DNA of 43,594 nucleotides from an uncultured cyanobacterium. GTDB taxonomy: Bacteria > Cyanobacteriota > Cyanobacteriia > Leptolyngbyales > Leptolyngbyaceae. Shown here one piece after another: positions 15,740-41,670 of this stretch. The position numbers and the translations under genes are program-made. The first letter of the stretch is position 1, and the number at the start of each line of letters is the position of its first letter. The notes under the pieces are model-generated. The model ran no database searches and was not told where the DNA came from. It saw only the letters and a list, made by a program, of their open reading frames with translations. The stretch covers positions 1-43,594 of the forward strand of contig CAVYAN010000022.1 in NCBI GenBank assembly GCA_963766075.1, written 5' to 3'.

Positions 15740-18552
15740 CTAATCAGAACATTCGCGGCTGAGGATGAGTTGCCCATCGGGGAGTTGATACACGCCATCA
15801 GGTTCGACAATCGGATCACCCTTCTGCCACCGTTTCCCCGGTACCCGAGGAACTGAACTGACTCCTGACTCCTGACGACCGACGACCGTCGCCCGCAATT
15901 CCCCTGTCGGGTAGGGCACCGCAGGCGGATCGCCGGGGCGGAGGGGCAGGCTGCTGGAGCCGGTGACGTAGAAGCTGTTGTTGCGGTTGGGGGTGCGGAC
16001 AATGCAGGTATTGGCGAGGAGGGCGTTGGTGTCGATTTGGGTATTCGGCAATTGATTGAGACCGTTTTGGAGGAAGCTGAGATCGGGGAGGGTAATAGTT
16101 CCAAAAATACTACCACTAGCGTTAATATCTACGCGGTTATTGCCATCTAGCGTCAGTGGATCGGTGCCAAAGGGAGCAGGGCGATAGTTTTGTCCAAAGA
16201 AAGCGCGGGTGTTGAGAGTGATATTGCCACCACGACCATCTTGGGCAAAAGCCAGAATGTCACTATCATCTAAAGCAATAATGGAGTTTGCAGTGATAGT
16301 AATATCCCCCCCATCGTCAGCGCCGCTGAAAACTGAAGTGACGATATTACTGTTACCCGATAAGCGAATTGCATTAGCTGCAACATCAATGCTGCCGCCA
16401 GCGGTTAACGACGAAGATGTTGCGATCGTACCATCAATAACTTTTAGGGTATCTCGGACTTGCAGCACAATATCTCCCGCATCCCCTTGTCCAAAGGAAC
16501 TAGAATTCAATTGCGCCCTATCAGTAACCTGGAGTGAGCCTGCGGAGAGTGTCAGCCTCCTCCCTGCCCCACAGCGCCAGTTTCTAAGGTACTTGCAGCA
16601 CCGCTCGAAAACCCATTGATACCCACCCCATCAAAGATAGCGATATCACGCACGGTAATCCAGATATTGCCGGCATCCCCTTGCCCAAAAGTGCTAGAAC
16701 TCAATTGCGCCCCATTGGTGACCCGGAGCGAGTCTGCGGAAAGTGTCAGTGTACCGCCCTGTCCCACGGCCTTAGGTCCCACTTGACTTCTGACACCACT
16801 TGAAAATTCATTGCTACCAGTGCCATCAAAGATAGCGATATCACGCACGGTAATCCAGATATTACCAGCATTCCCTTGCCCAAAAGTGCTAGAACTCAAT
16901 TGCGCCCCATTGGTGACCCGGAGCGAGTCTGCGGAAAGCGTCAGTGTACCGCCCTGTCCCACGGCCTTAGGTCCCACTTGACTCCTGACAATACTCGAAA
17001 ATCCATTACTGCCAGTGCCATCAAAGGTGGCAGCATCACGGATGATAATCGAGACAGTCCCCGCACTCCCTTGTCCAAAGGTTCCAGAACCCAACACAGC
17101 ACCATTGGTGACGTTAAGTGAGCCTGCGAAGAGTGTCAGGCTTCCTCCCTGTCCTACAGCACCAGCTTCTACCGTACTTTCGGCATCGCTGGAAAACCCA
17201 TTGGTACCCACCCCGTCAAAGATGGCGATATCACGTACGCTAATCCAGATATTGCCTGCATTTCCTTGCCCAAAGGTACTGGAATTTAATTGTGCTCCAT
17301 TAGTGACGCGAAGAGAACCGACGATGAGCGTTAGCGTCCCTCCATTACCCATCGCGTTAGGTGCCACTTGACTCCCAACACTACTGGAAAATCCATTGCT
17401 GTCTGCCCCATCAAAGATGGCGGTATCACGGACAGTAATCGAGATATTCCCCCCATTCCCTCGCCCAAAAACGTCAGAGGTCAATTGTGCTCCATTAGTA
17501 ACGTTGAGGGAGCCTACGTTGATCAGAGTATTTCCGGCATTACCTGTTGCTCCAGCTTGAACAAGATTGAATACGCCGCTCATTCCCTGAATTTGGAGCA
17601 CTCCAGTGGCATTCAAAGTAATGTCACCTGCTTGGCTAGTGACCGTTCCCAATCCAGGCCGAATACCAGCCTGCAAAAAACTGCTGTCTAAAATATCTAG
17701 GTTACGAGCATTGATGACGATGCTACCCCCGCCCCCCGCGGCAACATTCACCGCAGAGAAACTGAGAGATGAATCACTCAGGGATATATTCGATCTCTCC
17801 ACCCCATCCGGGAACTGCAACTGCAACTCATTTCCACTCGTCACCAACTCCACCCGTCCAGCCGCCGCCAATCCTCCTAGTTCCACTCGCCCACCGGGAG
17901 CCTGCAAAATGCCCCCTTCCAGTGTCACATTGCCTCCCAGCAACATTAAATTCTGCCCATTCGGCACCCGCAAGTTCACTGAACGATTTACCATATTGCC
18001 CGTCGGCACCCGATCAAACAGATACACCGAGGGGTTAATCGTCAGCAACGACAAGTCATTACCGGGTGTCGTTGCGCCAAAACTGCCCCGATCTCCAAAC
18101 CCAATCGCATTTGCCGTTGTCGCCGCAAACGAACCGCCCACATCCAATTGAGCACTCGCACCAAAAATGATGCCATTGGGATTCAGCAAAAATAGATTGG
18201 CAGTAGAAACTGCAAAAGTGTTATCCAGACGAGTACCTAAAACGCCATCAATCTGAGACAAGTTTTGTCCCGTAACTCGTGCAAACACATTTTGAATGGT
18301 GTCATTGGGAATCAGAAAAAATGCCGCACGATCTGGGCTAATATTAAATTCTTGAAAACTGTGAAACAGGTTTTGCCCCCGCACTGCACCATCCCGAATC
18401 GCCTCAATCGGGAAACCCAAGAAATTGGGAACTACGGTAGTCCCAGCCGTAGGATCAGCAACAATATTGCTTTGGGCAAGGGCAGGCAGAGAAAATCCGA
18501 TCGCCCCCATCATCCCCAACCCGATCGCCACCCGCAGCTCCTGAATCTTCAT
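15740..18552 (-). CDS. Filamentous haemagglutinin-like (TpsA-type) exoprotein 1; single frameshift near 16555
   Basis: Signal peptide, NLFHSFQEF and NLFLLNPNGIIFG haemagglutination-activity domain, 65-aa beta-helix repeats. The two ORF-track pieces join if one base is restored. Confidence 0.88.
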
Positions 18553-18850
18553 CCGATCGCCCCCTACCCCAATCCCGTGAATGGCTGAGATCGTACCAGG
18601 AGAACAAGCGATCGCCCGCTAAATTCAATCAAACTTCCAAATTGCGATCGGTCTTGCCGTCTCGGAGCACATCTCCCCAACCCGTTCAGCCTCACCCCAA
18701 CCCCATCCAGTACAACTGTGGGCAACCCGCCCCACTCTGCTTCAGTCATTGCCCCCAGTCATTTTGAACATCCCACGATCCAGCCCCACTTGAACCAGGT
18801 AATATACCTTTAGCGTTCAACCTCACGCCCTCTACCCCTGGAACTTGCCC

Positions 18851-21598
18851 ATGCGTAGCCGCCACTCCGGTCCCCGTGTTCACCCCTGGCTCATCAGCTT
18901 AGCCCTCAGCACCCCCCTCCTCAGTCTGGGAGCCCATCCCGCCGCACTGGCCGCATCCCCCAACCCGGCCCAGCTTGTGCAACAAGGCATCGATCGCTAC
19001 CAACAAGGCGACTACCCCAGCGCCATTCAAGCCCTCCAGCAAGCCCTCCAGCAATACGAGCAAGCCCGCGACCAACCCAACACCGCGATCGTCCTGGAAA
19101 ATATTGCCCGCACCTATCAACAACTCGGCCAAAGCGAACCCGCGATCGCCCACTGGCAAAAAGCCATCACCCTGCACCACCAACTGGGCAACACCCCCCA
19201 ACTAGGCCGCGCCCTCACCGAACAAGCCCAAGCCTACAGCAACTTTGGTCAACCCAAGCAAGCGATCGCCCTGCTCTGCCATGAGATGGAAACCGCCACA
19301 GATGACACCAACATCGACCTCATCGAGCAAGAAAATCCCCTTCCAGTCACCTGCGCGGCCAACAGTGCCCTCGCCCTCGCAAAAAACAACCCCGATCAAA
19401 CGCAAGAAATCGCAGCCCTAGGCAGCTTAGGCGAAGCCTATCGGTTGCTGGGAGAGCATGACCGGGCGATCGCCCGCCTAGAAGAAGCCAAAACCAAAGC
19501 AGACACCCTCGGCAATTCCATCTACAAAATCTCCGTCCGCAACAGCCTCGCCACCGTGCTCACCAGCCGCGCCCAACTCAGCTATCATCGCGCCCAATCC
19601 GCCCAACGTCGCCAGCCACAAACGTCCGCCGACAGTCCGGCACCCACCGTCCCCACCACCCTGGCCGCCGATGATGCGAAAGCCCTCAGCTATCTCACCG
19701 AAAGCTACGCCCTCGCCAAAACTGACCCCCAAGCCCAAATGCGAGCCTTGCTCAGCACCTTTCCCATCTATGCCCGCCAGCAAAATCAAGCGGCCATAGC
19801 TACAACATTGCAACAAGCCCTGCCTCTCCTGAACCAACTCCCACCCAATCGATCGCGCGTTTATGCCAGCCTTGATCTCGCCCGACTTTTATCCGTAACG
19901 GCCACCATACCGGCCACCGACGCTACTCCCCCACGATCACCCGTTTGTGTAAGCCAGCAGCCCCCTGCCCAGGCTGAAACCCTGCTCAAACAAGCGATCG
20001 CCACCGCCCGCCAAATCCAAGATCCCCGCGCCGAATCCTTTGCCCTCGGTGAACTCGGCAAACTGTACGAATGTCGCGGTGACCTGCCCCAAGCCCTACA
20101 ATGGACGCAACAAGCCAAATTCGCTGCCGCCCAAGATGCCAAGGCCCAGGACAGCATGTACCAATGGGAATGGCAAACCGGGCGCATCCTGAAAGCTCAA
20201 GGACAAGCCGAAGCCGCGATCACCGCCTATGAACAAGCCCTCGCCACCTTAGCCACAATTCGGGGGGATATTCTGAGTGCAAACCGCGATCGGCAATTCG
20301 ATTTTCGTGACACGATCGAACCGATTTATCGAGATTTAATTGATTTGCGCATCGGTTCAGAAACCAACTCAGCGAATAGAGATAGTGGCAGATATTCACA
20401 GAAATCTGCTCGCAAAGAGAATGCTAAACCGGAATCCGTTGGGAGTAATCTCGACGCAGTTTTGAAGATTGCTGATTCACTCCAGCTAGCCAGACTGCAA
20501 AACTACTTTGGTAGTGAATGTATCATCACCGCCATCAATACCGATCTCGCAGAGTTAAGAAAAGAAATTGATAAAGACCAACAAACGGCAATCATCACGT
20601 CGATTATTCTGAAAGATCGGACTGTGATGGTCTTGAAATTGCCCAATCAAGCCCCGCGTCAGTTTATAGTTACACGCAGTCAAGCAGAGTTAGAGAAAAA
20701 GATCAATGCTTTTCGGCGCAGCGTCGAAGACGGGACGAATCCGGCTGGCTTTGATCGCAAAGAAGCGGAAGAACTCCATAAGTTGCTAATTCAACCGTTA
20801 CTCTCCACCCTACAAACACAACCGATTAAAATCCTGGTCTTCGTCCAAGATGGCTTGCTGCAAAGCATTCCGATGGCCGCTTTGTACGATCGCCAGCGCC
20901 AAAAATATTTGATCGAAGACTACGCGATCTCCACCACTCCCAGTCTAAACCTGACGAATTTAGCCGCCCGCGATCGCACGATCGTCCCCCAGATTCTGGC
21001 CTTAGGGGTAACCAAAGCCCGCACCGTCGAGGGTCAAACCTTTACGGAGTTGCTGAACGTAAAAGGGGAGATCGATCAGGTCACCCAGAAGTTTCCCGGT
21101 AGTCAGGCGTTGTTAGATGAGGACTTTGGCCGCAAGACCCTCCAAAAAGTGATTACGCAAAAACCTTTCTCGATCATCCATATGGCCACCCACGGGCAGT
21201 TTGGGGCCGATCCTGACGACACCTTTTTGGTGATGGGAGACGAGAATAAACTGACGATCGCGGGCCTCGAACGCCTCTTGCGCCGCGTGGCTAAAAATCA
21301 AACGCCACTGGATTTATTGATGCTGACGGCCTGCCAAACAGGGGTCGGCGATGATCGGGCAATCTTAGGCTTAACGGGGGTGGCGGTGCAGTCGGGAGCG
21401 AATAGCGCGATCGGTTCCCTCTGGTTTATCGATGACGTGGCCACTTCAGAATTAGTCAACTTGTTTTATCAGAACTTACCCAACACCAGCAAAGCGGAAG
21501 CCCTGCAAACCGCACAAAAGGCATTGATTGCGCGGACGGATTCATATAGCCACCCGGCCTATTGGGCGGCACTGGTGTTGGTGGGTAACTGGCGCTAA
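18851..21598 (+). CDS. Secreted TPR-CHAT (caspase-like) domain protein
   Basis: Signal peptide, TPRs and intact CHAT dyad IIHMATHG / LTACQTG; C-terminal HPAYWAALVLVGNW. Confidence 0.92.
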   Translation: MRSRHSGPRVHPWLISLALSTPLLSLGAHPAALAASPNPAQLVQQGIDRYQQGDYPSAIQALQQALQQYEQARDQPNTAIVLENIARTYQQLGQSEPAIAHWQKAITLHHQLGNTPQLGRALTEQAQAYSNFGQPKQAIALLCHEMETATDDTNIDLIEQENPLPVTCAANSALALAKNNPDQTQEIAALGSLGEAYRLLGEHDRAIARLEEAKTKADTLGNSIYKISVRNSLATVLTSRAQLSYHRAQSAQRRQPQTSADSPAPTVPTTLAADDAKALSYLTESYALAKTDPQAQMRALLSTFPIYARQQNQAAIATTLQQALPLLNQLPPNRSRVYASLDLARLLSVTATIPATDATPPRSPVCVSQQPPAQAETLLKQAIATARQIQDPRAESFALGELGKLYECRGDLPQALQWTQQAKFAAAQDAKAQDSMYQWEWQTGRILKAQGQAEAAITAYEQALATLATIRGDILSANRDRQFDFRDTIEPIYRDLIDLRIGSETNSANRDSGRYSQKSARKENAKPESVGSNLDAVLKIADSLQLARLQNYFGSECIITAINTDLAELRKEIDKDQQTAIITSIILKDRTVMVLKLPNQAPRQFIVTRSQAELEKKINAFRRSVEDGTNPAGFDRKEAEELHKLLIQPLLSTLQTQPIKILVFVQDGLLQSIPMAALYDRQRQKYLIEDYAISTTPSLNLTNLAARDRTIVPQILALGVTKARTVEGQTFTELLNVKGEIDQVTQKFPGSQALLDEDFGRKTLQKVITQKPFSIIHMATHGQFGADPDDTFLVMGDENKLTIAGLERLLRRVAKNQTPLDLLMLTACQTGVGDDRAILGLTGVAVQSGANSAIGSLWFIDDVATSELVNLFYQNLPNTSKAEALQTAQKALIARTDSYSHPAYWAALVLVGNWR

Positions 21599-21856: not shown

Positions 21857-22718
21857 ATGCGGCGGGATTCGATTTTTTATCAATTGTTCCAACAATCGCC
21901 GATCTTATTGTTTGACCTGCTGCCCTTGCCACCCGAAAATGCTGAACGCTATCGATTTGACTCCGTTGCGGTCAAGGAACCCAAATTTGAAATCGATGGG
22001 GTGTTCTTACCCCCGGACGATCACCCCGGTGCCGTCTATTTTTGTGAGGTGCAGTTTCAGCCCGATGAATTGCTCTACGAACGGCTGGTGAGTGAATTAT
22101 CCTTGCTACTTCTATCGAAATCGATCGCGGTTTTCTGATTGGCAAGCGGTGGTGATTTATCCATCACGCCGGATCGAGCAAAGGGAAATCTATCCCCATC
22201 GATCGCTGCTGTCTGGTGAACAACTGCATCGGATTTATTTGGATGAGTTGGATGATTGGCGACAATTGCCCTTAGGTGTGGCCTTGATGGTGCTGACGAC
22301 GCTGACGACACAGGATGCTCCTGAAGATGCCCGCTATTTGTTGGCAAAATCTCAACGGGAATTAACCGATCCTACGGCGTGTCGCGCCATAATGGAAATG
22401 TTAACGACGATTCTGGTGTATAAATTTGATCAATTGAGTCGAGTGGAGGTGGAAGCGATGTTGGGCATCAGTTTGCAGCAAACGCGGGTGTATCAAGAGG
22501 CCAAGGCTGAGGGGGAAGAGATTGGTGAACAGCGCGAGCGATCGCTGATTCTCCGCCAACTCACCCGCCGGGTCGGTGAATTGCCTGCACTGGTACAATC
22601 GCACATCGACGCGCTTTCTCTTGATCAGTTGGAAGCCTTGGGCGAGGCATTGCTGGATTTTGCGGGGTTAGCCGATTTACAGCAGTGGCTGACGGCACTG
22701 GCGGATGATCGGGGGTGA
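21857..22718 (+). CDS. Rpn family recombination-promoting nuclease / putative transposase (DUF2887 + DUF4351); frameshift near 22105
   Basis: MRRDSIFYQLF, FEIDGVFLP and YFCEVQFQ (PD-(D/E)XK); C-terminal LILRQLTRRVG...LEALGEALLDF. Confidence 0.88.
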
Positions 22719-22959: not shown

Positions 22960-23343
22960 TTAGGGGGTGCTTTTACGGTCCACGCCAATGATTTGCTGCA
23001 ATGTCTCAAACAGCGGTTGATACTGATCGGTGGGCAACGTACCGATGTAGCCGATAATTCTTTGCATATCCAGGCTCCGGATTTGATCCAGCAGCACGAT
23101 GGAATTCTGGGTCAAACCCGCGATGCCTGCATGGATGTCAGGATACAGAGCGGGGTTGCGATTCGTCCAATCACCGCGCTGGGTGGTCAGCGGTGCGACC
23201 CAAATCATCGGATAGCGCAACTGTCCTCGTGGTAAGCCGACCACAATTGCGGGTCGTCGTCCAGCTTGTTCGCGACCGGGGGGTTGCTGGGTGGGTAGGG
23301 CGATCAGCAATACATCGCCTATATCGATAGGAGTCGTCGTCAA
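22960..23343 (-). CDS. mazF: PemK/MazF family endoribonuclease toxin
   Basis: GDVLLIALP..QPPGREQAGRRPAIVV, VAPLTT and VLLDQIRSLD..RI motifs. Confidence 0.9.
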   Translation of the reverse strand: MTTTPIDIGDVLLIALPTQQPPGREQAGRRPAIVVGLPRGQLRYPMIWVAPLTTQRGDWTNRNPALYPDIHAGIAGLTQNSIVLLDQIRSLDMQRIIGYIGTLPTDQYQPLFETLQQIIGVDRKSTP

Positions 23344-23618
23344 GATTTACCGCCTTCGACCACTAGACCAACGCCAGGAATGTAACGCACGGGATGAGTT
23401 GGGGGTTCTGTTCCCTCGACCCACTCATAGTCAGGCAGTTCCTCGGCTAAATCGGCTTGCTGCCATGTCACCGTTTCTTCATCTATTGTGGCGTTGGACA
23501 GGTCTGTAGAGTTGGACAGGTCGCGCTGGAGCGCTGCCAAGACTTCATGTTTGGCGGCTTGAGGGAGCTGGCTGAAGAGTTCTATGACTTGGGTGATGGT
23601 GATGGTCAGGTTGGGCAT
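23340..23618 (-). CDS. Probable antitoxin for the MazF-like toxin
   Basis: Small acidic protein with a 4-nt overlap onto the toxin start; no recognisable AbrB or RHH fold. Confidence 0.65.
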   Translation of the reverse strand: MPNLTITITQVIELFSQLPQAAKHEVLAALQRDLSNSTDLSNATIDEETVTWQQADLAEELPDYEWVEGTEPPTHPVRYIPGVGLVVEGGKS

Positions 23619-23807: not shown

Positions 23808-26800
23808 ATGAACACCCAAAGTTGGCTGGGGCCTGGGGTCATTGGATGGGGGATGATGGGGGCGATCGTTCTTTCCGCCAATACTATTGGGGCGCAGAGT
23901 GTGATTGTGCCAGATGAGACGTTGGGGGAGGAGCGATCGACGGTTATGCCTGCGGTAATTAAGGATCTGCCGAGCGATCGGATCGAAGGTGGAACCATTC
24001 GAGGCATCAATCTATTTCATAGTTTTGAGAAACTTAGTGTGGGTACCGGACGGGGGGTGTATTTTGCTAATCCCACGGGTGTTGAGAATATTCTAAGTCG
24101 GGTGACAGGGAACAATCCTTCGGGAATTTTGGGCCGATTGGGGGTGCTGGGTAATGCCAATTTGTTTTTGCTGAATCCGAATGGAATTGTGTTTGGGCCA
24201 AATGCCAGTTTGGATGTGCTGGGTTCGTTTGTGGCGACGACAGCAAATGCTATCGGGTTTGGCGATCGGGGGAGTTTTAGTGCAACTAATCCATCGGTAC
24301 CATCGGAGTTGCTAACCATTAATCCTTCGGTGTTTTTGTTTAATCAGCTTCCAGTAGGACAAATTATCAATAACTCAAATTCGCCCACTGAGTTTACTAG
24401 TCCATCGGGAAGTCCCATATCTGGTCTGCGGGTTTCCGATGGGCAAAGCTTGCTCCTGGTCGGTGGTGACATCAGTATGGATGGCGGTAGATTAAACGCT
24501 TTGGGTGGGCGGATAGAGTTGGGTGGATTATCATCTGTCGGGACTGTGGGGTTGCAATTTACCGGGAATATTTTAAGCCTGAATTACCCGCAAAACAGTT
24601 TGTTAGCTAACGTGACTCTAGCAAATGATGCCAGAGGTGCTGTGCGAGGAGCAGGGGGGGAGATATTGTCATCAATGTTAGTGCTTTTACCGCTACAAAC
24701 GGTGGACGCTTAGTGGCCGGAACGGAAGGAGTCGGCAATGGAGGAGATATTTCTGTTAATTCTAATCAGTTCAATATTTCTGGAGTTGGCGCTAGCGGAA
24801 TTGGTGCAGGTCTCTATGAACAAGTTCTAGCTAATGCTTCTGGAAAATCGGGAAATATTTTGATTAAGACACAACTTCTAAAAGCATCATCAGGTGCAAA
24901 TTTAGTCAATGACGTCCGGCCTAGAGCAATGGGAAATGCAGGAGACTTAACTATAAACACCAACCGTTTAATTGTCGAAGATGGTAGTTACGTATCATCG
25001 AGTACTTTTGGTATGGGGAATGCTGGAAATTTAACTATTTACGCCACTGAGTTAATTCAAGTGACTGGTACTTCTCCTGATGGCCAAACATTAAGCAAAA
25101 TTTTCACGGATGTTGAGTCTGAAGCATCGGGGCAGGGAGGAAGTCTGAAACTTGACACTCCACAACTGATCGTGGCCGATGGCGGTCAAATATCATCGAG
25201 TACTTTTGGACAGGGAAATGCCGGAAGTATTACGATAAATTCTGATTCTATAGATATACATGGAATAGGGGCAGGTGGAATAGATGCTTATCCGGCTGGG
25301 ATCTTTGTTGAAGTGGTCAATTCAGTTACAGACAAAGGAGTTCGTGGAGGCGATCTGACAATTACCACCCAAAGCCTGAGCATTCGTGATGGTGCAAAGA
25401 TTTCAGGCACTACCTCTGGAAGAGGGGATACAGGTAACGTAACTATTTATGCTTCTGGTAAGGTCGAAGTCGTCGGAACGAGAATTGTTGGACCTTCTCC
25501 TGGTGTTTATTTCATAAGCAAGATAAGCACTGATGTTATTGATGGCGCTATTGGTAATAGTGGTAATTTGACAATTGAAGCCTCTAGATTAGTTGTAAAG
25601 AATGGTGGAGAAGTGTCGTCCAGCACATTTGGGATGGGTAACGCCGGAACATTAATCGTTCGTGCTTCAGACTCTGTAGAACTGAAAGGGGAAAGTCCAG
25701 GAACAGGAGAAAGAAATGGCTATCCCAGTGGGTTATTTGCCCAAGTAGAGCCAACAGGTGAAGGGTCGGGAGGTAATCTAACCATTGAAACTGGACGCTT
25801 GGATGTGAGTAATGGTAGTAAAGTGCAAACAGCAACTTTTGGGCGGGGGAATGCAGGTGACTTATTTATTCGTGCTTCTGAAGTTAATGTATTCGAGACA
25901 GACACTCCCGGTGTTTTCACCGCAGCAATTAATGCTGGTGTTTCTCTTGGTCCTAGCAGTTTCACCGTACCTAGGGGCAATGGAGGCAATCTAACAATCG
26001 AAAACCAAGCGCTTCAGTGTCAGAAGCGGTGGGGAGGTTACAGTTGGAACTTTTGGAGATGGCAATGGAGGAACATTGCAAATCATTGCAAGTGACTCAG
26101 CAGAGGTTGTTGGCACATCGATCAATGGTCTACGCCGTAGCCGAGTAAGTGCTGAAGTTGGGGCAAACAGTACAGGTAATGGGGGGATTTGATTTTTGAT
26201 GCTGGTCAACTGAGTATTCGAGATAGAGGAATTATTACTAGTCGTAGTAGGGCGCAGCAACCAGCAGGCAACGTTTATATTAGTGTCCGTGGAACCCTAC
26301 AAGCCAGAAATAGTGATATTTCTACAAGTTCTGTTAAGTCTGGAGGCGGTAACATCAATATTGTTGCAAAAGACATTTTTCTTCGAGGTGATAGCAATAT
26401 TACAACTAATAGTGTCGCAGGAAATGGCGGTAATATCACCTTAACGGGAAAAGCGATTATTGCTCTTGATGACAGCGATATTTTAACGTTTGCGCAGCAA
26501 GGGAGAGGTGGAAATATTACCCTCAACACTCCTGCTTTCTTTGGGCAAAACTATCGTCCTGCGCCTCCCGGTACTGATCCAGTTGCATTAGACGGTAATA
26601 ACCGCGTAGACATCAACGCCAGCGGTACCGTATCTGGCATCATCACCCTCCCCGATCTCAGCTTTTTGCAAAATGGCCTCAACCAACTCCCCAACAGCCA
26701 AATCGACACCAATGCCCTCCTCGCCAATAGCTGCATCGTCCGCACGCCCAACCGCAACAACAGCTTCTACGTTACTGGCTCCAGCAGCTTGCCCCTCCGC

Positions 26801-30802: not shown

Positions 30803-31474
30803 TTAATCCAATAATCCGGCTGAGCGTGCCTGAATCTCGGTTTGGATCCGAATATTTTTGCCTTCCTCGGGATACACCTCTAGAGCATCCTGAATCTTCG
30901 TCCAATAGTGCCGGACGGTGCGTTCTGCCACATGCATCTGTTCCGCGATCGCCTTATCCTGCAACCCTTCCTGAAAAGCTAACCGCAGGACCTCTAGCCA
31001 TTCCGGTTTGATTTCTAAGCGATGCCGCATATCCTTCGGTGTAAAAATCAAGCCCTGCAAAGACCAATCCACTTTGGTCAGCATCTCACGCATCGGCAAA
31101 CTCTTATCCGCCACGGTGAAGCCCCCCTCATGGGCCGTAATCCCCGCTTTTAATTGGGCCAGCGATCGGGTATGGGCACTTTGCACGACGATATTTAACC
31201 GAGGGTACTGTTCCATCAACGTTTTGAGCAATTGAATGCCCGTTCGAGTTTGCGCCGATTCGCCCAGTGCTTCTGGCATCGACAGATCGACAATCACCAA
31301 ATCGGGTTGGTGGTGTTCCACCGCCGCGAGGGCCATCTGGGAATTTTGGACTGGCGTAATTTCAGCATTAGTATACTGTTGCTGTAACGCGCTAACTGTG
31401 GCTTCCAGCACGAGCTCATGATCATCCACCAGCAAAATTTTGAGTGGTGTGGATGGTGCAATTGATTCAGACAT
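30803..31474 (-). CDS. NarL/LuxR-type response regulator
   Basis: LLVDDHE, phospho-acceptor VDLSMP and C-terminal HTH GLQDKAIAEQMHVAERTVRHY. Confidence 0.93.
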   Translation of the reverse strand: MSESIAPSTPLKILLVDDHELVLEATVSALQQQYTNAEITPVQNSQMALAAVEHHQPDLVIVDLSMPEALGESAQTRTGIQLLKTLMEQYPRLNIVVQSAHTRSLAQLKAGITAHEGGFTVADKSLPMREMLTKVDWSLQGLIFTPKDMRHRLEIKPEWLEVLRLAFQEGLQDKAIAEQMHVAERTVRHYWTKIQDALEVYPEEGKNIRIQTEIQARSAGLLD

Positions 31475-31494: not shown

Positions 31495-32319
31495 TTATCG
31501 GTGGCTCACTGCGGGCGATCGCTGTTCCGAGTCTCCCATATATTTCCAGCGAAAGTGCATCGTCAATTGATTCTGCTGGTGCTGATAGGTACAGGTACCG
31601 CCGGTTAAGGCCCCAAAGGCGCGGGCTAAGTGGCTCAGATCGTCTGATTCTGGAGAGAATTCTTCAGGGGTCAACAGTTGAATCCGCAGTACCGCCATGG
31701 CTGACTCTATCTGCAACCGCAGTTGAATGGATTGGTTCGGTACAGGCCGAGAGCAGACCAGACGCAATAACTCATCCAACGCCGTGAGAATAACCGGGCC
31801 GTGCTCAGATGGCGCTGAGTGCCAATGCGTCGGGAGATCGAGGGTGAACGCACAGCCTGGATAATGGCTCTGCCATTCCTCCAGCCGGTACTGGATCGCC
31901 AGGGGTAAACTTTCCTCCAGGTAGGGGGGGGAGAGGCGATCGCTCAGCCGTTTGAAATCATTGTGAAAATCTTCCAGCGCGTTCAGCCAAGCCTGATTCA
32001 AGGGGATATCACCCGCCGCATCCCCCAGAGCGACCTCCAGATTACGCCGCAGCGAGAACGACTTCTGCAATAAGCCATTGCGGATGTCTTCGGCAACTTG
32101 GTGCGATTGTATCGCTTGTCGGCTCTGCCACCAGCGTAAGGCCCGCTGCGTCTTTAGCAAGGATACGAGGAGAAGAACTAGGACGAGGATACTAACGGCT
32201 AAAATAACAATCACAGGACGAGCAAAGAAATGAACGGTTCGGAGATTTTCATCAGAATGCTTGGCTCTTGAACAGAACGGTAAAGGAATACGCAAACATC
32301 CGCAATCGGACGAGGCCAA
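31495..32319 (-). CDS. Degenerate membrane-anchored histidine-kinase-like protein (pseudo-kinase)
   Basis: One TM helix, AEDIRNGLLQ (Arg at the His position) and LSPPYLEESLPLAI; no N or G boxes. Start uncertain, possibly GTG 32214. Confidence 0.7.
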   Translation of the reverse strand: MASSDCGCLRIPLPFCSRAKHSDENLRTVHFFARPVIVILAVSILVLVLLLVSLLKTQRALRWWQSRQAIQSHQVAEDIRNGLLQKSFSLRRNLEVALGDAAGDIPLNQAWLNALEDFHNDFKRLSDRLSPPYLEESLPLAIQYRLEEWQSHYPGCAFTLDLPTHWHSAPSEHGPVILTALDELLRLVCSRPVPNQSIQLRLQIESAMAVLRIQLLTPEEFSPESDDLSHLARAFGALTGGTCTYQHQQNQLTMHFRWKYMGDSEQRSPAVSHR

Positions 32320-32756
32320 GAGGCTCTCCCCCTGCGTGCTTCCTAGAATATCTCAGCCTCCTGAAGAATGCACTGGCGATACAGACAAGTCCGATTGCAC
32401 TTTTCGGCAATCTTTTTGGACAATAGCCGCCAGACAGCCACACTAAGCTCTTGCCCGCAACGAATCTGATGCCGGAAATCTCAATGCCGTCACCTCCTTG
32501 GTCCTCACACTTTGTCCTCAAAGCCGGTGCAAAAGCTGCCATGACCTTGCTCTAGAACGTCAGTAACACCCCCATCGGCCACCCCTACTACGGGTCACTC
32601 TTTATTTTAATTGGCAATGGACTATAAACCAACTTGGAAAAGTCATGGGGAATTCTGCATAACTTCCAGGGATTTGAGGATAGAAGTACATGTGGGGGGA
32701 ACGCAATAGGCTACCCCAACGACAACTCTAAAATCCTAAACAATTGAGGCAAATTC

Positions 32757-33464: not shown

Positions 33465-33622
33465 ACGCCGTTCCTATCGGCAACGGGCTGAAGTTCTCCA
33501 GCCCAGTGTGACCTCTAATCTCAATTGAGTTCAGGAAGATCGGCTGCTGTCCTCTCGCTCAACAGCAGTCCCGCCCATCCCCTGAAGCCAGTCTCGGCGA
33601 TCGCGCCTTGATCACAGCCCCG

Positions 33623-34741
33623 ATGAAAAGCCAAATCCAAAATCTAGAATCCTCAAATGGTCTCCCTATGGAATCCCTTCTGCTCCAGGAAATGAGTAAT
33701 GCCGATATTGATTGGTTCCAGTACGTTGGCACAGTGCAGGAACTGATGCCAAACCAAGTCTTAATGCAACCTGACTCCCCCGATCATCAAGTGCATCTAT
33801 TATTACAGGGAGGATTGACAATAGCATTCCCCGCTCAAGAAACGCTAACACCTCAGGAACTCATGCCGCTGGACAGGGGTGATCTCATTGGTGAAGTTCC
33901 CGCATTGGAACCGTTCTACGGTACGGCGACAATTCATGCCAGGACTCCCTGCCAAATTTTATCAATTGATCAACACCACCTAGCCGAAAAATTAGCTCAG
34001 GACACCCTATTTGCCGCCCACTTCTATCGCGTCCAAGCCCTCTTAATCATGCAGCGGCTCCAGACGTTGATGTTCCAGTTTCAACTGAATCCAGATAGCC
34101 TCTATCAAATTAATGTCAAGGAAGCCTCTAGCCTGTTTGCCGAACTTCAGGATAGCGATTTAGATTGGTTCATCGCCGTGGGAGAGTGGCAATCGCTACC
34201 CAGAGCCGCGATTCTACAGCCCGCCGATCGCCCCATTGAAGCGCTATATTTTGTCCTGGAAGGGGCGTTGAGTCTTGGGGCATCCCGTGAATCTCCCCAC
34301 GATTTAGCCCAGATTTTTTATCCGAGGCCGCAGGATACAGCCTCCGCTCCCCTGCAGGAGCTGACTCGAATTGCTCGAGGGGACATATTCGGGGAAATGC
34401 CATTTGCACAGGTCAATGCTGTGACAATGCCCCTGTCTCGGGTTCAAGTACAGGCGGTGCGCGACACAGAGGTGCTTTCAATTCCGCGCTGGCGACTGAT
34501 CTCTAAGCTTCTGCATGATCCGGGGTTTGCCTTCCGGTTCTACCGCGTGTTAGCTGTCTTACTTGCCAGTAAATATCACACCCTCGTCACCCACTTAGGA
34601 TTTATTACCCAACCCAACCCGCAAGGATTAGGCAGCAGCGATCGCCTACTGACTCAGATGGCTCGGGCAGAGAAGCGGTTTGAGTGGATGGTCCAACGCA
34701 TTCAAACAAAAATTGCCACCAGAGGAGATATGCAATGGTAG
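33623..34741 (+). CDS. Tandem cyclic-nucleotide-binding (cNMP) domain protein
   Basis: Two repeats of ELxDxDxDWF...L.G.L...GD(L/I)xGE...FAxxFYRV.A; stop overlaps the HlyD start by 7 nt. Confidence 0.85.
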   Translation: MKSQIQNLESSNGLPMESLLLQEMSNADIDWFQYVGTVQELMPNQVLMQPDSPDHQVHLLLQGGLTIAFPAQETLTPQELMPLDRGDLIGEVPALEPFYGTATIHARTPCQILSIDQHHLAEKLAQDTLFAAHFYRVQALLIMQRLQTLMFQFQLNPDSLYQINVKEASSLFAELQDSDLDWFIAVGEWQSLPRAAILQPADRPIEALYFVLEGALSLGASRESPHDLAQIFYPRPQDTASAPLQELTRIARGDIFGEMPFAQVNAVTMPLSRVQVQAVRDTEVLSIPRWRLISKLLHDPGFAFRFYRVLAVLLASKYHTLVTHLGFITQPNPQGLGSSDRLLTQMARAEKRFEWMVQRIQTKIATRGDMQW

Positions 34742-36237
34742 TTCAACTTGTAAACTCAGAAGCATCAAATCAGCACCGCGAACACAAACCGACTCAGAAT
34801 CGGTTATTTCGACAGCAGGCTCTAGAGCAAACGGCTTCTCCGGAACAACTGGATCTTCCCATCCAAATTATTTCTCCCAAACGCTGGTTGTCTTTATTGG
34901 CGCTAGGGTTACTGGTTACGACAGGGGCGGTGTGGAGCGTTTGGGGGTCGATTCCGATTACTGTGACCGGAAAAGGTGTATTGACCTTCCCCAGTCAGAT
35001 TCAACCCCTGCAAAGTCCCGGTGCCGGACGCATTGCCCAAGTTGCTGTCAAAGTGGGTGATCGCGTTACTAAAGGACAATTACTCGCGGCCTTAGATCAA
35101 TCAGAACTGAAACAACAACTGGAACTTGTCCGTAATAAATTGAGTCAGTTGCAAGCCCAGGATCAATCCGCCAAGTTGGCTCAAACGCAGCGCGGTACCC
35201 TAGAGCAAACTGCGATCGCCCAACAGCGCCAAACCATTCAACAAGACTTGCGCACGGTCCAAGCCATGACCCCCGATATCTATGCCAGGGGCATGGCCGC
35301 AACCCAACAAGAACGAAAGTTTCTCCAGGAAAGGCTCACAAAACTGCGGCAACAAGCCGCTGAATATGCCCAAATCTGGGAGCGGATGCAAACCTTAACC
35401 CGTGACGGTGGCTATCCTCCCAACTCCCTGATTAAAGATAAGCAGGAATATCTGGTCAAACCTCAAACGGACATCCTAGAGGCGGAAGCTCAACTGAAAC
35501 AACTGGATGCGAAGGAAACGACAGCCCAACAGGAGCATTTGAAAAATGTCAATAAAGTGAATGAACTCCAAGCGCAACTACAAGAACTTGATAGCAAGTC
35601 GGCAGGCCAAGCGGAACAGGATTTAGCGACGACGACCGGACGCAGCAAAGAAATTCAGGATACCAAAGATGCGATCGCCCAATTGGAACTGAAGCTGCAA
35701 CAGAATGCTCAAATTGTCAGTGAGGCTGATGGCTACATTCGCGAACTCAACATCAGTCCCGGCCAACGGATTGAAGCCGGAGCCGAGATTGGGGTCATGG
35801 CGGCCAATCAGCCTAATACCCCCCTCGAAGCCATTACGTTTGTCCCCGTAGAAGAGGGCAAAAAACTTGATGAGGCCCTGGTGAAACGAGGGATCAAGGT
35901 GCAAATCACTCCCACCACGGTGAAGCGGGAAGAATATGGGGGAATCTGGGGGGAAGTGACTCAGGTATCTCACGCTTCCATTACCCAGGCGGGAGCGGTC
36001 CACCTAGTGGGTAACCCGACCATTCTGCCGACGCTGATGGAACAAGGCAAAGCCTATATCGTGGTTTCTACCCGGCTAGAACCTGCTGCTACACCGGGCC
36101 AGTATCGTTGGACCTCCTCTAAAGGGCCAAATCAACAGATTACCGATGGCACGACGACCACCGCCAGCATCACGATTGAGGAGCGGCGGCCTATTTCTTT
36201 TGTCATTCCCTTGTTGAAATCCCTGGTGAGTCAGTAG
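34735..36237 (+). CDS. NHLP-system secretion protein (HlyD family membrane fusion protein)
   Basis: LFRQQALEQ..SPEQLD, TM helix, WGSIPITVTGKGVL, coiled coil, TVKREEYGGI.G.V and IEERRPISFVIP; SD AGAGGAG. Confidence 0.92.
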   Translation: MVVQLVNSEASNQHREHKPTQNRLFRQQALEQTASPEQLDLPIQIISPKRWLSLLALGLLVTTGAVWSVWGSIPITVTGKGVLTFPSQIQPLQSPGAGRIAQVAVKVGDRVTKGQLLAALDQSELKQQLELVRNKLSQLQAQDQSAKLAQTQRGTLEQTAIAQQRQTIQQDLRTVQAMTPDIYARGMAATQQERKFLQERLTKLRQQAAEYAQIWERMQTLTRDGGYPPNSLIKDKQEYLVKPQTDILEAEAQLKQLDAKETTAQQEHLKNVNKVNELQAQLQELDSKSAGQAEQDLATTTGRSKEIQDTKDAIAQLELKLQQNAQIVSEADGYIRELNISPGQRIEAGAEIGVMAANQPNTPLEAITFVPVEEGKKLDEALVKRGIKVQITPTTVKREEYGGIWGEVTQVSHASITQAGAVHLVGNPTILPTLMEQGKAYIVVSTRLEPAATPGQYRWTSSKGPNQQITDGTTTTASITIEERRPISFVIPLLKSLVSQ

Positions 36238-36316: not shown

Positions 36317-38641
36317 ATGTCAACCCGATCTTTCCCCGCCCTGTCCTTCTCGTCTTTGTCCTTCCCTCCCCTTTCTAGGGCCAGCCTCTCACAGCTCTGG
36401 CAGCAGGGAATAGATCAGCTGAAAGATCCCTTTATCCGGCGCAAAGTCATTCAGCGCACTCCGTCTGTTTTGCAAATGGAAGCGGTCGAATGTGGTGCTG
36501 CCTCCCTGAATATGATTTTGGGCTATCACGGTTACATTGCCTCATTAGCAGAGCTGCGCCAAGCCTGCGGCGTGTCCCGCGATGGCAGCAAAGCGTCCAA
36601 TGTGCTGAATGCGGCACGGCTCTATAAGCTAGAAGCCAAGGGCTTTAAGGCCGATATTCCAGCCCTCCAGCAATTAGCGCCGCCCTATATTGTGTATTGG
36701 AATTTCAATCACTTTCTAGTTGTGGAAGGCTTCTATCGCGATCGCGTCTATCTTAATGATCCGGCCACCGGACCGCGCAGTGTCCCACTGGCTGAATTCA
36801 GCGAATCATTTACGGGTGTTGTGCTGACGTTTGTCCCGGGAGCGGAGTTTCAACCTGGTGGTGAAAAGCCCAGTATTCGGCGATCTCTGTGGGCAAGACT
36901 GCGCAGTTCTGTAGGTTCGCTGGCCTTCTGCATCCTGATTGGCTTTTTGCTGGTGCTGCCCGGTTTAGCCACGCCCGCGTTTTCTCAGATTTTTGTGGAT
37001 CAGGTGATCCTACAAGGACGGCAGGAATGGCTACGCCCCCTGATTCTGGCGATGGTGGTGACGGCGGTGCTGACTGGATTGCTGAAGCGCATGCAATTGC
37101 AAGTGCTGCGCCAATTGAAATTAAAATTGGCGGTCTCCATGTCGAGCCGATTTTTGCGGCATTTACTGTACTTACCGGTGAGCTTTTACGATCAGCGATT
37201 TGCTGGGGAAATTAGTAATCGCACCCAACTCAATGATCGTCTGGCGCAACTTTTATCGGGACAGTTAGCCACTACAGTGATTTCAGGCGTGATGGTGGTA
37301 TTCTATGCCGTTGTCATGGGAATGTACGATTGGGTGCTCACTCTGATTGGTATTGCCTTTGTTGCTCTGAATCTTCTAGTTTTGCAATTGGGAGCCCGCC
37401 AGCGATCGGATACCAATATGCGGCTGATGCAGGTGCAGGGAAAAGCCGATGGCCAAGCGATCGCAGGCTTGCAAAATATGGAAACCCTCAAAGCCTCCGG
37501 GGCTGAATCCGATTTCTTTACCCGCTGGGCGGGCTACTATGCTAAAGCCGTCAATGCCCGCCAGGAGATGGCCACCCTGAATCAGCGGATGAGTCTTTTA
37601 CCTACGCTCTTGTCGAGCTTGAGTGTGATGCTGCTGTTGGTGGTGGGCGGGTTTCGGGTGATGGAGGGTGTCCTCACCATTGGTAAACTGATTGCGTTTC
37701 AATCGCTGATGCAGCAGTTCATGCAGCCCGTGGGCCAAATTGTTCAACTGGGGGGAGATTTCCAGGAGTTAACGGGCAATCTAGCCCGGTTAGATGATGT
37801 CTTAAAAAATGACATTGATCCCCTGGTCAAACAGCACTTGATGGGTTCTAGAAATACCCTAGAACCGGTGAGATCGCACCCCAGAATTCTTCAGCCTAAA
37901 TTGGAAGGCTATTTAGAAATTCGCAATCTCACCTTTGGCTACAATCGCACTGCCGCTCCCTTAATTGAGAATTTCAGTGTGTTTCTAAAACCGGGGCAGC
38001 GGGTGGCATTAGTGGGGGGCAGTGGCTCCGGCAAATCGACGATTGCTAAGATCGTGGCCGGTTTATATCAACCGTGGTCTGGCGAGATTCTATTTGACGG
38101 CAAGTCTCGGCAGGAGATTCCGCGATCGGTACTGGTCAATTCCCTAGCCATGGTGGAACAGGATGTCTTGCTCTTCTCTGGTGCTGTGCGGGATAACCTC
38201 ACCCTGTGGGATCCCACCATCCCCGAAAGTAATCTGGTGCAAGCTGGTCAGGATGCCGCCATTCATGACGTGATCACGGCCTTGCCCGGTGGCTACAATG
38301 CCGATTTGCTGGAAGGGGCAACCAACTTAAGCGGGGGACAGCGGCAGCGCCTGGAAATTGCCCGCACCTTAGTGAACAATCCATCCATTCTGTTGATGGA
38401 TGAAGCAACGAGTGCCTTAGATACCGAAACCGAACGCATCATTAACGGCAATTTGCGATTGCGTGGCTGTACCTGTTTAATTGTGGCCCATCGTCTCAGC
38501 ACGATTCGCGATTGTGATGAAATCATCGTGCTAGAGCGGGGCAAAGTCGTCCAGCGCGGCAGTCATGATCAGTTGCGGAAACAGCCCGGGCATTACTTAG
38601 ATCTAATCCGGAGCGAAGGTGGGTCCTTAGAAAATACCTGA
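36317..38641 (+). CDS. NHLP-family peptidase-containing ABC transporter (C39 peptidase/permease/ATPase)
   Basis: QMEAVECGAASL (Cys), WNFNHF (His), LNDPA (Asp); GGSGSGKS, LSGGQ and DEATSALD. Confidence 0.95.
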   Translation: MSTRSFPALSFSSLSFPPLSRASLSQLWQQGIDQLKDPFIRRKVIQRTPSVLQMEAVECGAASLNMILGYHGYIASLAELRQACGVSRDGSKASNVLNAARLYKLEAKGFKADIPALQQLAPPYIVYWNFNHFLVVEGFYRDRVYLNDPATGPRSVPLAEFSESFTGVVLTFVPGAEFQPGGEKPSIRRSLWARLRSSVGSLAFCILIGFLLVLPGLATPAFSQIFVDQVILQGRQEWLRPLILAMVVTAVLTGLLKRMQLQVLRQLKLKLAVSMSSRFLRHLLYLPVSFYDQRFAGEISNRTQLNDRLAQLLSGQLATTVISGVMVVFYAVVMGMYDWVLTLIGIAFVALNLLVLQLGARQRSDTNMRLMQVQGKADGQAIAGLQNMETLKASGAESDFFTRWAGYYAKAVNARQEMATLNQRMSLLPTLLSSLSVMLLLVVGGFRVMEGVLTIGKLIAFQSLMQQFMQPVGQIVQLGGDFQELTGNLARLDDVLKNDIDPLVKQHLMGSRNTLEPVRSHPRILQPKLEGYLEIRNLTFGYNRTAAPLIENFSVFLKPGQRVALVGGSGSGKSTIAKIVAGLYQPWSGEILFDGKSRQEIPRSVLVNSLAMVEQDVLLFSGAVRDNLTLWDPTIPESNLVQAGQDAAIHDVITALPGGYNADLLEGATNLSGGQRQRLEIARTLVNNPSILLMDEATSALDTETERIINGNLRLRGCTCLIVAHRLSTIRDCDEIIVLERGKVVQRGSHDQLRKQPGHYLDLIRSEGGSLENT

Positions 38642-38746
38642 CTGAATCTCTCCCCACCACTGCTGTCATCGACATATTTCCCCACTACTAGACACTGCTC
38701 ACTAATCACTGCCTATCCTAGCCCCCCTTCATCCCTTAAATCTCCC

Positions 38747-41670
38747 ATGTTTACCGAAGTCAAGCCACTGCCAAACCCACAAAAAATCTATCATTTGAAT
38801 AGCAATGAGCGCGTATTTCTCAACGATGCCAACTGCATTTGGCGCGTCACCTCTGGTGCCCTCGATGTATTTGCGCTGCACCAAGGCGTGCGCCGCTATC
38901 TATTCAGTGTCAAACCCGGTGACCTACTATTGCCCATGGGTTCTTCAGCTCCAACACCCACCTGCCAGTTATTTGCCCAGGCAGCCCAAGCTACTACTCT
39001 GGAGCCATTTTCCTCCGAGGGTTTTCAGGATTGGCTGCGGCAAGAACCCACAGTTGCGATCGCGGGGTTAGAAGCCTGGGTGACCGCTCTTAGCAGCACC
39101 GCCGCCAATGTCGCCCCCCCGATTCTGCCTACCCCTCTGCTCAACTCTGGAATTCTCGATCGAGGTGAAGTTTTTCAGCCTACCCATGGGCAAATGTCCT
39201 GGATCCGCCTGTGCCAGGGGGAAGCCACCCTTTTGGGCGAGCGAGCCCTAACAATTACACCGGACTGTAGCTGGCTACCCTTGGCAGATTCCCTCTGGCT
39301 GCAAGCCACACACTTGGTTGAATTGGATCGATGTTCCCACACCCATCTGACTCACGCCCACATTCTGCTCCAGGGCGTGATGCACCTGCAACAATTGCTG
39401 GGACAATTACTGGAAACTCAATTGCAGCAGACTCAGCAGGATGAGCTAGAGCGGCTATATCGGCGCGAGCAAATCAATCAGGATGCGCTAAATCAGACAA
39501 ATGCGAGATTCATTACGTTATTCCAATCGCCAAAGCGCCCCAAAACAGCGCACCCTGCCATAGCCCAAGACTTTGATACGGCGCTGATGATGGCCACTGG
39601 CGCAGTCGGGCGTCTCCTGGGTGTGACTATCCAGCCTCCATCGGCATCGGAAGATCGGCGGCGGCTGGGCAACCCACTGGATGCGATCGCTCGGGCTTCC
39701 CAACTGCAAATTCGCCAAATTAGCCTGCGAGATGAGTGGTGGACAAAGGACTGTGGTCCGATGGTGACCTATGCATTGGAAGATGGACGACCAGTGGCCC
39801 TGCTACCACTGGCTGGAGCGGCCTATGAACTCTATGATCCCTGTGGCCAAATGCAGACTAATCAGGCACCAGCTAATCAAACGCGGGTGCGGTGCGATCG
39901 CGCATCTCCAGTCAGCTTTCTCCCACGGCATACACGTTCTACCGCGCTTTACCCACGGTTTTACGTCCCATCGATCTCCTCAAATTCGCCACCCACGGTC
40001 TGACCAAAGAACTGATCACTATCCTGGTGGTCGGTGTGGTGACTACTCTCTTAGGCATGGTGACACCCTTGGCCACGGGCCTGCTGATCGATACCGCCAT
40101 TCCCGCTGCCAATCGCCAGATGGTGTGGCACATGGCCTTGGGATTAATCGCCGTCACCTTTGGATCTACCCTGTTTCAGATGACTCAAAGCTTTGCCATC
40201 ATGCGTGTGGAAACCTATGCTGATTCAGCGACCCAGGCCGCCGTGTGGGATCGGTTACTCAAGCTGAAACCTTCCTTTTTTCGGCAGTATACCAGTGGCG
40301 ATTTGAGTTCTCGGGTTTCGGCGATTAGTCAAATTCGGCAACGTTTGGGCAGTACGGTACTCAAGAGTTTATTCTCAGGGATTTTTTCATTTCTTAACTT
40401 AGGCTTATTGTTCTATTACAGTATCCCTTTAGCGTTGATTGCTGTTGGAGTCGCAGCGATTAATATTACCGTAACGGTGATTGCGGGCCGCCTGACTTTG
40501 CAGAAAACCAAACCGCTGCTGGAGCGGCAGGGCAAGCTGCTGGGCGTGATGATGCAACTGATTAACGGGGTCACTAAATTTCGAGTGGCGGGGGCCGAAT
40601 CCCGCGCCTTTGCCTACTGGGGACAACAGTACAGTCAGCAATTGAGCCTGATGCTGGGCACACAGGGCATTGAAGATAACCTCACCCTAATTAATAGTTT
40701 GCTGTCTACGCTGACTCCGGCGGTGCTGTTTGCGATGGCTACTCATCTGTTGGCCACCTCGACCGGTGAGTTTTCCATGGCCACATTTCTGGCTTTTAAT
40801 GCGGCCTTTGGCACTTTTATTAGTGGGGCTACGAGCCTGAGCACCATTGTGGTGGATATTTTGGAGGTACAGCCCATTTGGCAGCGGGCGCAGCCGATTC
40901 TCAAAGCGGTGCCGGAAGTGGATCTTTCAAAAGCTAATCCAGGCCGACTGACGGGCCGACTGGCGATCGCCCATGCAGTGTTCCGCTATCGTCCCGAGGG
41001 GGCTTTGAATTTGGATGATGTCAGCATTCATGCCGAACCGGGCGAATTTATTGCCTTGGTGGGGCCTTCGGGCAGTGGTAAATCAACATTGCTGCGGTTG
41101 CTGCTGGGCTTTGATGTGCCCGAGTCCGGCGTGGTTTCCTTTGATGGTCAAGATTTGGCCAGTTTGGATGTGAAGGCTGTGCGTCGCCAGTTGGGAGTGG
41201 TGCTGCAAAATAGCCGCCTGATGTCGGCGTCAATTTTTGAAAATATTGCTGGGAGTGCCTTGATTGCAATGGATGAGGCGTGGGAAGCGGCGCGGATGTC
41301 GGGATTGGCGGCAGATATTGAAGCGATGCCCATGGGGATGCACACGGTAGTGAGTGAAGGGGGCACGAATCTTTCCGGTGGCCAACGACAACGCCTGTTG
41401 ATTGCGCGGGCGCTGGCCCTGCGGCCTCGAATCCTGCTGTTTGATGAAGCGACGAGTGCGTTGGATAACCGCACGCAGCAAATTGTTAGTGATAGCCTGG
41501 ATCGCCTCAAGGTGACACGTATTGTGGTGGCTCATCGGCTCAGTACAATTCGCAATGCCGATCGCATTTATGTGTTACAGCAGGGGCGCTTGATGCAGCA
41601 GGGTAACTTTGACCAATTGGCGGCTGCACCGGGTCTGTTTCAACAGCTTGTGGCCCGCCAGAAAGTTTAG
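38747..41670 (+). CDS. NHLM-system second ABC transporter (no peptidase); frameshift near 39905
   Basis: Degenerate cNMP-like N-terminus, WWTKDCGP..GRPVALLP, AYTFYRALP, QAAVWDRLL, GPSGSGKS and LSGGQRQR. Confidence 0.9.

Follow-up and report, generated by a model that had tools for sequence, protein, structure and literature searches.

In cyanobacteria, where quorum sensing has been called largely unknown (PMC9981879), small secreted proteins have been described in the EbfG1-4/PteB system of Synechococcus elongatus, of which EbfG1-3 form amyloid (PMC9981879, PMC12267927), and in Sinorhizobium meliloti the CHASE2 cyclases CyaD1, CyaD2 and CyaK, with NsrA, are reported to react to a proteinaceous signal that is passed on through the envelope (PMC13001267). 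The window analysed here (the whole stretch of 43,594 nucleotides, contig C22 of a cyanobacterial assembly that is 85% complete) had been described in an initial annotation as one peptide-signalling superlocus, in which an exporter of double-glycine (GG) peptides was divergently coupled to a CHASE2 histidine kinase, a NarL-type response regulator, a pseudo-kinase and a module of CHAT protease, DUF928 and FHA-like proteins. According to our analysis, this superlocus is probably a juxtaposition of two units; that they lie side by side with the left one forming an autoregulated loop, in which the N-terminal tip of DUF928 is the likely CHASE2 input, is a reading to which we give even chances.

Profile matches confirmed the divergent layout and the presence of all the genes named in that annotation. 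The main features of the left unit are:

15740..18552, minus strand: TpsA/FHA-like exoprotein 1 (PF05860, TIGR01901), with one frameshift near 16560
18845..21598, plus strand: TPR-CHAT protease (PF12770, 203 bits), intact and colinear with its orthologues
23808..26998, plus strand: TpsA/FHA-like exoprotein 2, in three open reading frame (ORF) pieces, with a TPS domain
27930..28727, minus strand: DUF928 exported protein (PF06051, 105 bits)
28805..28824, no strand assigned: second candidate regulator box (position weight matrix score 12.5; shuffle p 0.007)
28829..30758, minus strand: CHASE2 histidine kinase (CHASE2 and HATPase domains), with three frameshifts near 30350, 30065 and 29000
30803..31474, minus strand: NarL/LuxR-type response regulator (PF00072, REC; PF00196, GerE), intact
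31495..32214, minus strand: membrane-anchored pseudo-kinase, with the H-box His replaced by Arg and the N-box Asn absent
32393..32412, no strand assigned: main candidate regulator box, GATTGCACTTTTCGGCAATC, score 23.8

The H-box (IHNG), N-box, G1 and G2 motifs of the CHASE2 kinase were all recovered across its frames. The pseudo-kinase was aligned by hhalign with the cytoplasmic part of the kinase (E 8e-4 over 135 columns), and the phospho-His position was occupied by Arg in 64 of 68 pseudo-kinase rows, against His in 70 of 70 kinase rows, confirming at the level of sequence its status as a pseudo-histidine kinase, homologous to kinases and lacking the phospho-His and the ATP-binding motifs. 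Its look-alikes were HisKA_3-like; a search of PDB sequences with its profile gave no match at E 10, the related-locus search of GTDB genomes with the pseudo-kinase found none, and in metagenomes the single-protein search found no related locus, while the alignment query found two. The secreted CHAT protease with a His-Cys dyad was also upheld, as the protein has a signal-like N-terminus and the motifs of His783 (HMATHG) and Cys830 (TACQTG), and thus appears to carry the dyad motifs and the export signal of an active CHAT protease. TpsB was not found on the window's contig, so that TpsB beside TpsA, the arrangement of two-partner secretion, is not seen in the window; TpsB-like genes sit on five other contigs.

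A blind search for spaced palindromes detected TTGC-N8-GCAA in the upstream regions of 23 pseudo-kinase genes out of a non-redundant set of 70 (0.4 expected), and the refined matrix corresponded to the 16-bp palindrome TTGCA-S-WWWW-S-TGCAA. At a matrix score of at least 11, sites were present before 39/70 pseudo-kinase, 17-20/65 DUF928, 5/38 TpsA, 2/28 CHAT and 23/147 regulator genes, with 0-2% in the shuffled control, and near the module the box also stood in front of TpsB-like genes and of genes for other secreted proteins. The site at 32393, in a window that was outside the training set, was the best of the 24 matches in the genome scoring at least 15, and lies 178 nt from the pseudo-kinase start (42-330 nt in other loci, median 148). 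It falls within an intergenic region of about 540 bp, given the likely pseudo-kinase start at 32214, and not the 437 bp (32320-32756) of the initial annotation. The second box lies 5 nt past the true stop of the kinase and about 80 nt before DUF928, and of the nine DUF928 loci in the genome only that of the window has a box. The exact pattern was present in 31/49 regulator-positive against 11/40 regulator-negative family genomes, kin that are not independent. From this position and co-occurrence, the box is predicted to be an operator bound by the response regulator. A sigma-70 scan of 32150-33700 gave one site (1.8 expected), and the sole terminator-like match in that interval was the box itself. 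A genome-wide regulon was rejected, the 24 matches comparing with 15-19 in shuffles and lying mostly inside genes. As a separate observation, the box is repeated before secreted Gly/Asp-rich proteins with RTX-like repeats downstream of the module in five loci (L015, L016, L027, L030 and L035).

The mature DUF928 protein starts with Y-x-PP and has an Arg that is invariant in 61/61 alignment rows; in the window the mature N-terminal tip reads Y-x-x-PP...G-x-RGG-C and includes this Arg. DUF928 loci were always accompanied by a full CHASE2 (60/60 loci, table of 5-kb flanks). DUF928 followed 69 CHASE2 kinases, 24 of them with a box, and among the 55 CHASE2 kinases that it did not follow, a tip-only ORF was detected in 15, 12 with a box, at a background box rate of 24/553. 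In these ORFs, of 55-120 aa, a signal-like segment is followed by a tail with Y-x-PP...R, and the mature part has about 35-45 residues; none was found at the 19 kinases lacking both CHASE2 and DUF928, and several of their loci had no CHAT or TpsA within 10 kb. On the simplest interpretation, the working part of DUF928 would be its tip, acting on CHASE2 and closing the feedback loop. A complex prediction of CHASE2 with DUF928, made with the intact orthologue from L147, scored 0.10 against a mark of 0.32, and is evidence neither way. Tip-only ORFs stand directly after CHASE2 kinases in L069 (12366-12800), L081, L082, L087, L091, L095, L098, L099, L210, L213, L217, L013, L014, L021 and L037.

In the mechanism that we propose, the response regulator would bind the palindrome and thereby activate both its own operon and DUF928, the N-terminal tip of the Sec-exported DUF928 would bind CHASE2 in the periplasm, and the TPR-CHAT protease would release or clear the tip, for which the invariant Arg might be the site of cutting or of binding. 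The pseudo-kinase, lacking the His, may modulate the kinase by forming pairs with it, and TpsA/TpsB and other secreted proteins may be further outputs. As to the sign of the loop, we lean slightly to autoinduction. A broader version is more tentative: tip-peptide autoinduction through NarL regulator, palindrome and CHASE2 might be widespread in filamentous cyanobacteria, the Pro/Arg tip being released from DUF928 by CHAT or encoded alone and the signal spreading through periplasm or medium, with GG exporters, TpsA and matrix proteins plugged in as outputs and the window as one co-option.

Several results weigh against the autoregulated loop. Neither DUF928 nor a detected tip ORF is adjacent to 40 CHASE2 kinases (7 with a box), 45 of the 69 DUF928 genes have no box, and the second regulator module of the same genome (C33) has none before its DUF928. 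A control pattern gave 18 matches in 89 genomes, and given the exact pattern in 11 of the 40 regulator-negative genomes, the box might be the site of some other factor. Palindromes flanked by divergent genes can work in both directions, and this one might control pep1 as well. Some tip-only ORFs, such as that of L013, could be remnants of DUF928. Finally, the 1.95 kb of the window's kinase contain three frameshifts where the genome background would predict 0.15, and this copy may be in decay.

The right unit, on the other side of the main box, comprises:

32656..32662, plus strand: cassette promoter element TGCATAR, 101 nt before pep1
32757-33032, plus strand: pep1, a GG-leader CTB-like peptide with a conserved (F/G)AGPxG motif
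33171-33464, plus strand: pep2, a GG-leader peptide with a core of 54% Ser/Thr/Gly/Phe, from a family 54-65% identical
33608..34741, plus strand: double cyclic nucleotide monophosphate (cNMP)-binding (CAP_ED) protein (TIGR03896, 189 bits; cut-off 161)
34684..36237, plus strand: HlyD adaptor (TIGR03794, 328 bits; cut-off 156)
36317..38641, plus strand: C39-peptidase ATP-binding cassette (ABC) exporter (PCAT, ABC1; TIGR03796, 1116 bits; cut-off 853)
38747..41670, plus strand: second ABC exporter (ABC2; TIGR03797 C-part, 862 bits; cut-off 709), with a frameshift near 39903

All four models scored above their cut-offs, and the right unit is a group V (NHLM-type) exporter cassette. Its exporter genes match the NHLM three-gene transport cassette of Haft et al. 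(2010, PMC2887384), and it resembles the group V cluster of Wang, Fewer and Sivonen (2011, PMC3140520), which combines HlyD, a short C39 PCAT, a peptidase-less ABC protein and a double cNMP protein with GG precursors; in contrast to these, the precursors in the window are CTB-like, not NHLP or N11P, and the window has no modifying enzyme. A word search of the available part of PMC3140520 gave no mention of response regulator, two-component or kinase, although its cluster tables, like those of PMC12267927, may list neighbouring regulators. An identity of the peptides as NHLP or N11P was rejected, since pep1 and pep2 had no match to NHLP (TIGR03793) or N11P (NCBIfam E 0.05, Pfam E 0.01). With the CTB family NF038167 they scored 16.2 and 14.8 bits, below the 32-bit cut-off; their CTB look-alikes at 0.86-0.87 are a lead only, and PF28158 is present in one pep2 homologue. 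The pep1 and pep2 cores, of 46 and 69 residues, are conserved across genomes, including those where the regulator was not found, and the net charge of the pep1 core is -2 in the window and 0 to -6 among pep1 cores. From these properties, the peptides would be unmodified, near-neutral and beta-prone, with a role in matrix or adhesion (EbfG type) rather than as cationic bacteriocins.

The order pep1-pep2-cNMP-HlyD-ABC1-ABC2 recurred in 19 of 20 fetched loci (18 with pep1 in view), the remaining one being another group V type, and of 401 class genomes the pep2 profile matched in 9. The cassette is present in 13 family genomes, of which eight also have the regulator and five gave no regulator match (Fisher p 0.77). 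The TGCATAR element was located at -89 to -106 before pep1 in 12 of 19 cassettes, the window included, among them those of G203, G222 and G226, in which the regulator had no match; its interpretation as a half-box was rejected, as the left arm is not conserved and the element occurs in these genomes too. The cassette is therefore self-contained, with its own neighbourhood, phyletic pattern and promoter independent of the left unit.

The linkage of exporter and regulator was surveyed from the regulator side. Regulator orthologues were found in 40/201 phylum genomes and 50/90 family genomes, and about 10 kb on each side were fetched for the phylum and family search matches, plus the best 79 of 180 GTDB matches. 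This gave 181 distinct regulators, of which the 111 with both flanks of at least 7 kb were counted and the 70 with shorter flanks were left out. The left unit is conserved: among the 111 loci, DUF928 was present in 57, the pseudo-kinase in 52, CHAT in 39 and TpsA in 28. A group III exporter was nearby in 18, a long-type PCAT in two and group V in two, both on a single 71-kb contig of G002 (within a range of about 10 kb), while no group V exporter was detected in the regulator loci of the best 79 of 180 GTDB matches. The link between exporter and regulator, whose survey the initial annotation had proposed, is thus not conserved across relatives; a peptide-sensing system around CHASE2, CHAT and DUF928 gains support, whereas its connection with the GG exporter mostly fails.

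Group III linkage was concentrated in one regulator clade (support 0.89), read as Nostocales (all members belong to one family or to Calothrix), in which 19 of 22 members were linked to a group III GG exporter, in the order GG array, 716-aa PCAT, HlyD, pseudo-kinase, regulator and kinase, all on one strand. Ten of 18 exporter-linked kinases had no CHASE2, being 267-322 aa long with at most two transmembrane (TM) helices, and none of these had DUF928. A box-like site was significant in 2 of 17 GG-array promoters of the clade, clear in L026 and weaker in L029 (combined Fisher p 6e-4, from non-independent sequences), and a local co-option of the cassette in the window has a low probability. The arrangement in the window is not conserved, and the ties of this two-component system to GG exporters are old in one lineage. 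Kinases without CHASE2 still behind GG array, PCAT and HlyD were seen in L009, L011, L012, L019, L022, L023, L025, L029, L036, L204 and L222, the regulator is paired with a 6-TM kinase without CHASE2 in L024, L034, L039, L040, L103, L104 and L117, and in G000:C124 (313-4899) a frameshifted group III PCAT faces HlyD, with an inserted gene between them.

The 71-kb contig of G002 (C38; L037, L132, L133, L044 and L134), probably circular, holds two regulator/CHASE2 pairs, DUF928, CHAT, two TpsA, a TpsB-like gene and the group V exporter, together with two NHLP-like precursors and an HlyD gene that phage-like genes interrupt at the two ends of the contig. Near the pep1/pep2 cassettes, TPR-CHAT or Tat-type caspase genes were found within about 12 kb in 8 of 14 scorable cassettes (L228-L246), and a ninth adjoins CHASE2-DUF928-DUF1822; the count was made on the 20 fetched cassette loci, leaving out five cassettes on short contigs, and CHAT adjacency is expected in roughly 5-14%, from 8-44 CHAT matches per genome. 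Kinship and shared accessory islands could explain this adjacency. In the window, the GG cassette probably inserted at the margin of a protease-rich island.

A single circuit, in which the regulator bound to the box at 32393 would also drive the GG-peptide operon, making export an output of the CHASE2/CHAT/DUF928 sensor, is unlikely in our judgement. The strongest box of the window does stand in the shared intergenic region, the linked clade keeps its GG array, PCAT and HlyD directly upstream of the regulator operon, and its two boxed GG arrays point the same way. The G002 contig has all the parts, and upstream of its cNMP-HlyD genes lies a tip ORF preceded by a box; a group III HlyD precedes a 51%-identical pseudo-kinase in the metagenome contig L135; any PCAT was nearby in three replicons among the 91 loci outside the group III clade (about one expected, p ~0.08); and nine of the 14 scorable cassettes are near CHAT or caspase genes. 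Against it stand the absence of group V exporters from the best GTDB matches and the five cassette genomes with no regulator match. The box is also separated from the TGCATAR element of the cassette by 244 nt and from pep1 by 344 nt, it stands at the usual distance from the pseudo-kinase, and none of 18 unlinked cassettes had a site scoring at least 11 before the first detected peptide gene (combined shuffle p 0.32); in five of these the scored region was that before pep2, and a whole-locus scan found none near pep1 either.

The left unit could also be an envelope monitor. CpxP is an induced periplasmic inhibitor of CpxA, and by analogy DUF928 would be an induced periplasmic inhibitor of the kinase, degraded by CHAT upon faults in TpsA secretion; the parts are the same as in the autoregulated loop, the sign is opposite and there is no diffusible signal. 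The box before DUF928, TpsA and TpsB-like genes and the periplasmic protease in 39 of 111 loci suit such a monitor, but tip-only ORFs replace DUF928 in 15 loci, several of them without CHAT or TpsA, which a ligand fits at least equally well, and we consider the monitor doubtful.

That no circuit operates, the sensor module and ABC2 being decaying pseudogenes in an accessory island near an IS3-type element, seems improbable. The CHASE2 kinase, the two FHA-like exoproteins and the ABC exporters of the initial annotation are all present, but the kinase, both TpsA genes (at least two breaks in TpsA2; TpsA1 was covered in two frames by tblastn with intact orthologues) and ABC2 are frameshifted, which amounts to at least seven frameshifts over some 21 kb of coding sequence, against 1.6 expected from the genome background. 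For that background, 75 unrelated genes of the assembly (102 kb) showed 8 frameshifts, spread over 6 of the genes, and one extra G, at 39903 in ABC2 and at 30063 in the kinase, removes each break in contigs of relatives that are 98.5% and about 90% identical, respectively. The regulator, pseudo-kinase, DUF928, CHAT and both candidate boxes are intact. The frameshifts are probably largely assembly errors, and since their local rate exceeds the background, decay keeps some probability. None of the relatives' contigs, which are all short, bridged the two units end to end.

Toxin-antitoxin passengers and the IS3-type element nearby favour decay as well. The IS3-type transposase pair occupies 42409-43510, at the contig end and 0.7 kb past ABC2, and the passengers are:

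22092..22718, plus strand: Rpn-like DUF2887/DUF4351 gene (domain matches)
22960..23618, minus strand: MazF-like toxin gene and small antitoxin-like gene (weak NCBIfam matches below cut-off)
27031..27769, minus strand: PIN-domain gene (PF01850) and small upstream partner, the latter with only a weak match

DUF928 is accordingly not beside CHAT, as had been stated, the 6.3 kb between them holding these passengers and TpsA2. Elsewhere in the window, 1814-6549 carries a cluster of ChaB/YflT, Dps-like ferritin, alpha-amylase and hemerythrin genes, which we take to be a typical stress or desiccation set; 9292-10272 is an apparently truncated fragment with NB-ARC plus TPR; and 13388-14746 encodes a Rubisco activase-like AAA protein whose C-terminal domain is small-subunit-like.

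The GG peptides are very improbable as ligands of the CHASE2 kinase, in the manner of ComC/BlpC-type quorum sensing, because, although GG leaders, PCAT and the kinase/regulator pair are neighbours, 10 of the 18 GG-exporter-linked kinases have lost CHASE2, which tracks DUF928 instead, and the two cores are conserved also where the regulator was not found.

The module, the box and the linkage were nowhere described in the literature searched, in which subscription journals were mostly uncovered and DUF928 appeared in one of 8.4 million papers. The palindrome and the tip-only DUF928 mimics replacing DUF928 are new here, and the left module would be a conserved and apparently undescribed feedback loop, for which an operator is predicted and minimal peptides occur naturally. 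If true, feedback of this kind by a peptide would be rare among cyanobacterial circuits, and the predicted operator, small regulon and minimal tip peptides make the CHASE2 input directly testable. With ComABCDE, Blp and Agr the left unit would share an autoregulated kinase-regulator operon and a secreted peptide in the regulon; it differs from them in that the boxed peptide is predicted to be Sec-exported (DUF928 or tip-only ORF) and is not the GG peptide, and in its periplasmic CHASE2 sensor, NarL/LuxR regulator, added pseudo-kinase and periplasmic CHAT. The ComABCDE/Blp layout of GG peptide and PCAT beside kinase and regulator is seen in the window, with a box in the shared intergenic region, but not across relatives or before unlinked cassettes; the adjacency of GG peptide, PCAT and two-component system does not alone amount to quorum sensing. 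In CpxAR-CpxP-DegP, likewise, the regulator turns on its own operon together with a partner of the sensor in the periplasm, and a periplasmic protease and the secretion of surface structures are tied in, but the protein families of the window are unrelated.

The systems of EACC2, caspase and CHASE2 with extracytoplasmic function (ECF) sigma factor and DUF1822 (PMC8195603) also join a caspase-family protease to CHASE2 sensing in multicellular bacteria, and genes of this type lie near two pep1/pep2 cassettes; there, unlike in the window, the caspase is part of a fused, cytoplasmic protein, with a sigma factor as the output. The EbfG/PteB system resembles the right unit in its small unmodified GG-leader proteins, export by C39 PCAT and HlyD, and possible matrix role, pep1 and pep2 being likened to EbfG by core composition alone, but the EbfG exporter belongs to another group than V (group III for the Anabaena homologue alr5148, PMC3140520). 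For the left unit, the CHASE2 cyclases of S. meliloti (PMC13001267) are a precedent for a proteinaceous CHASE2 input, their signal being plant-derived and their output running through cAMP and Clr, whereas the window has a histidine kinase and a self-encoded candidate input.

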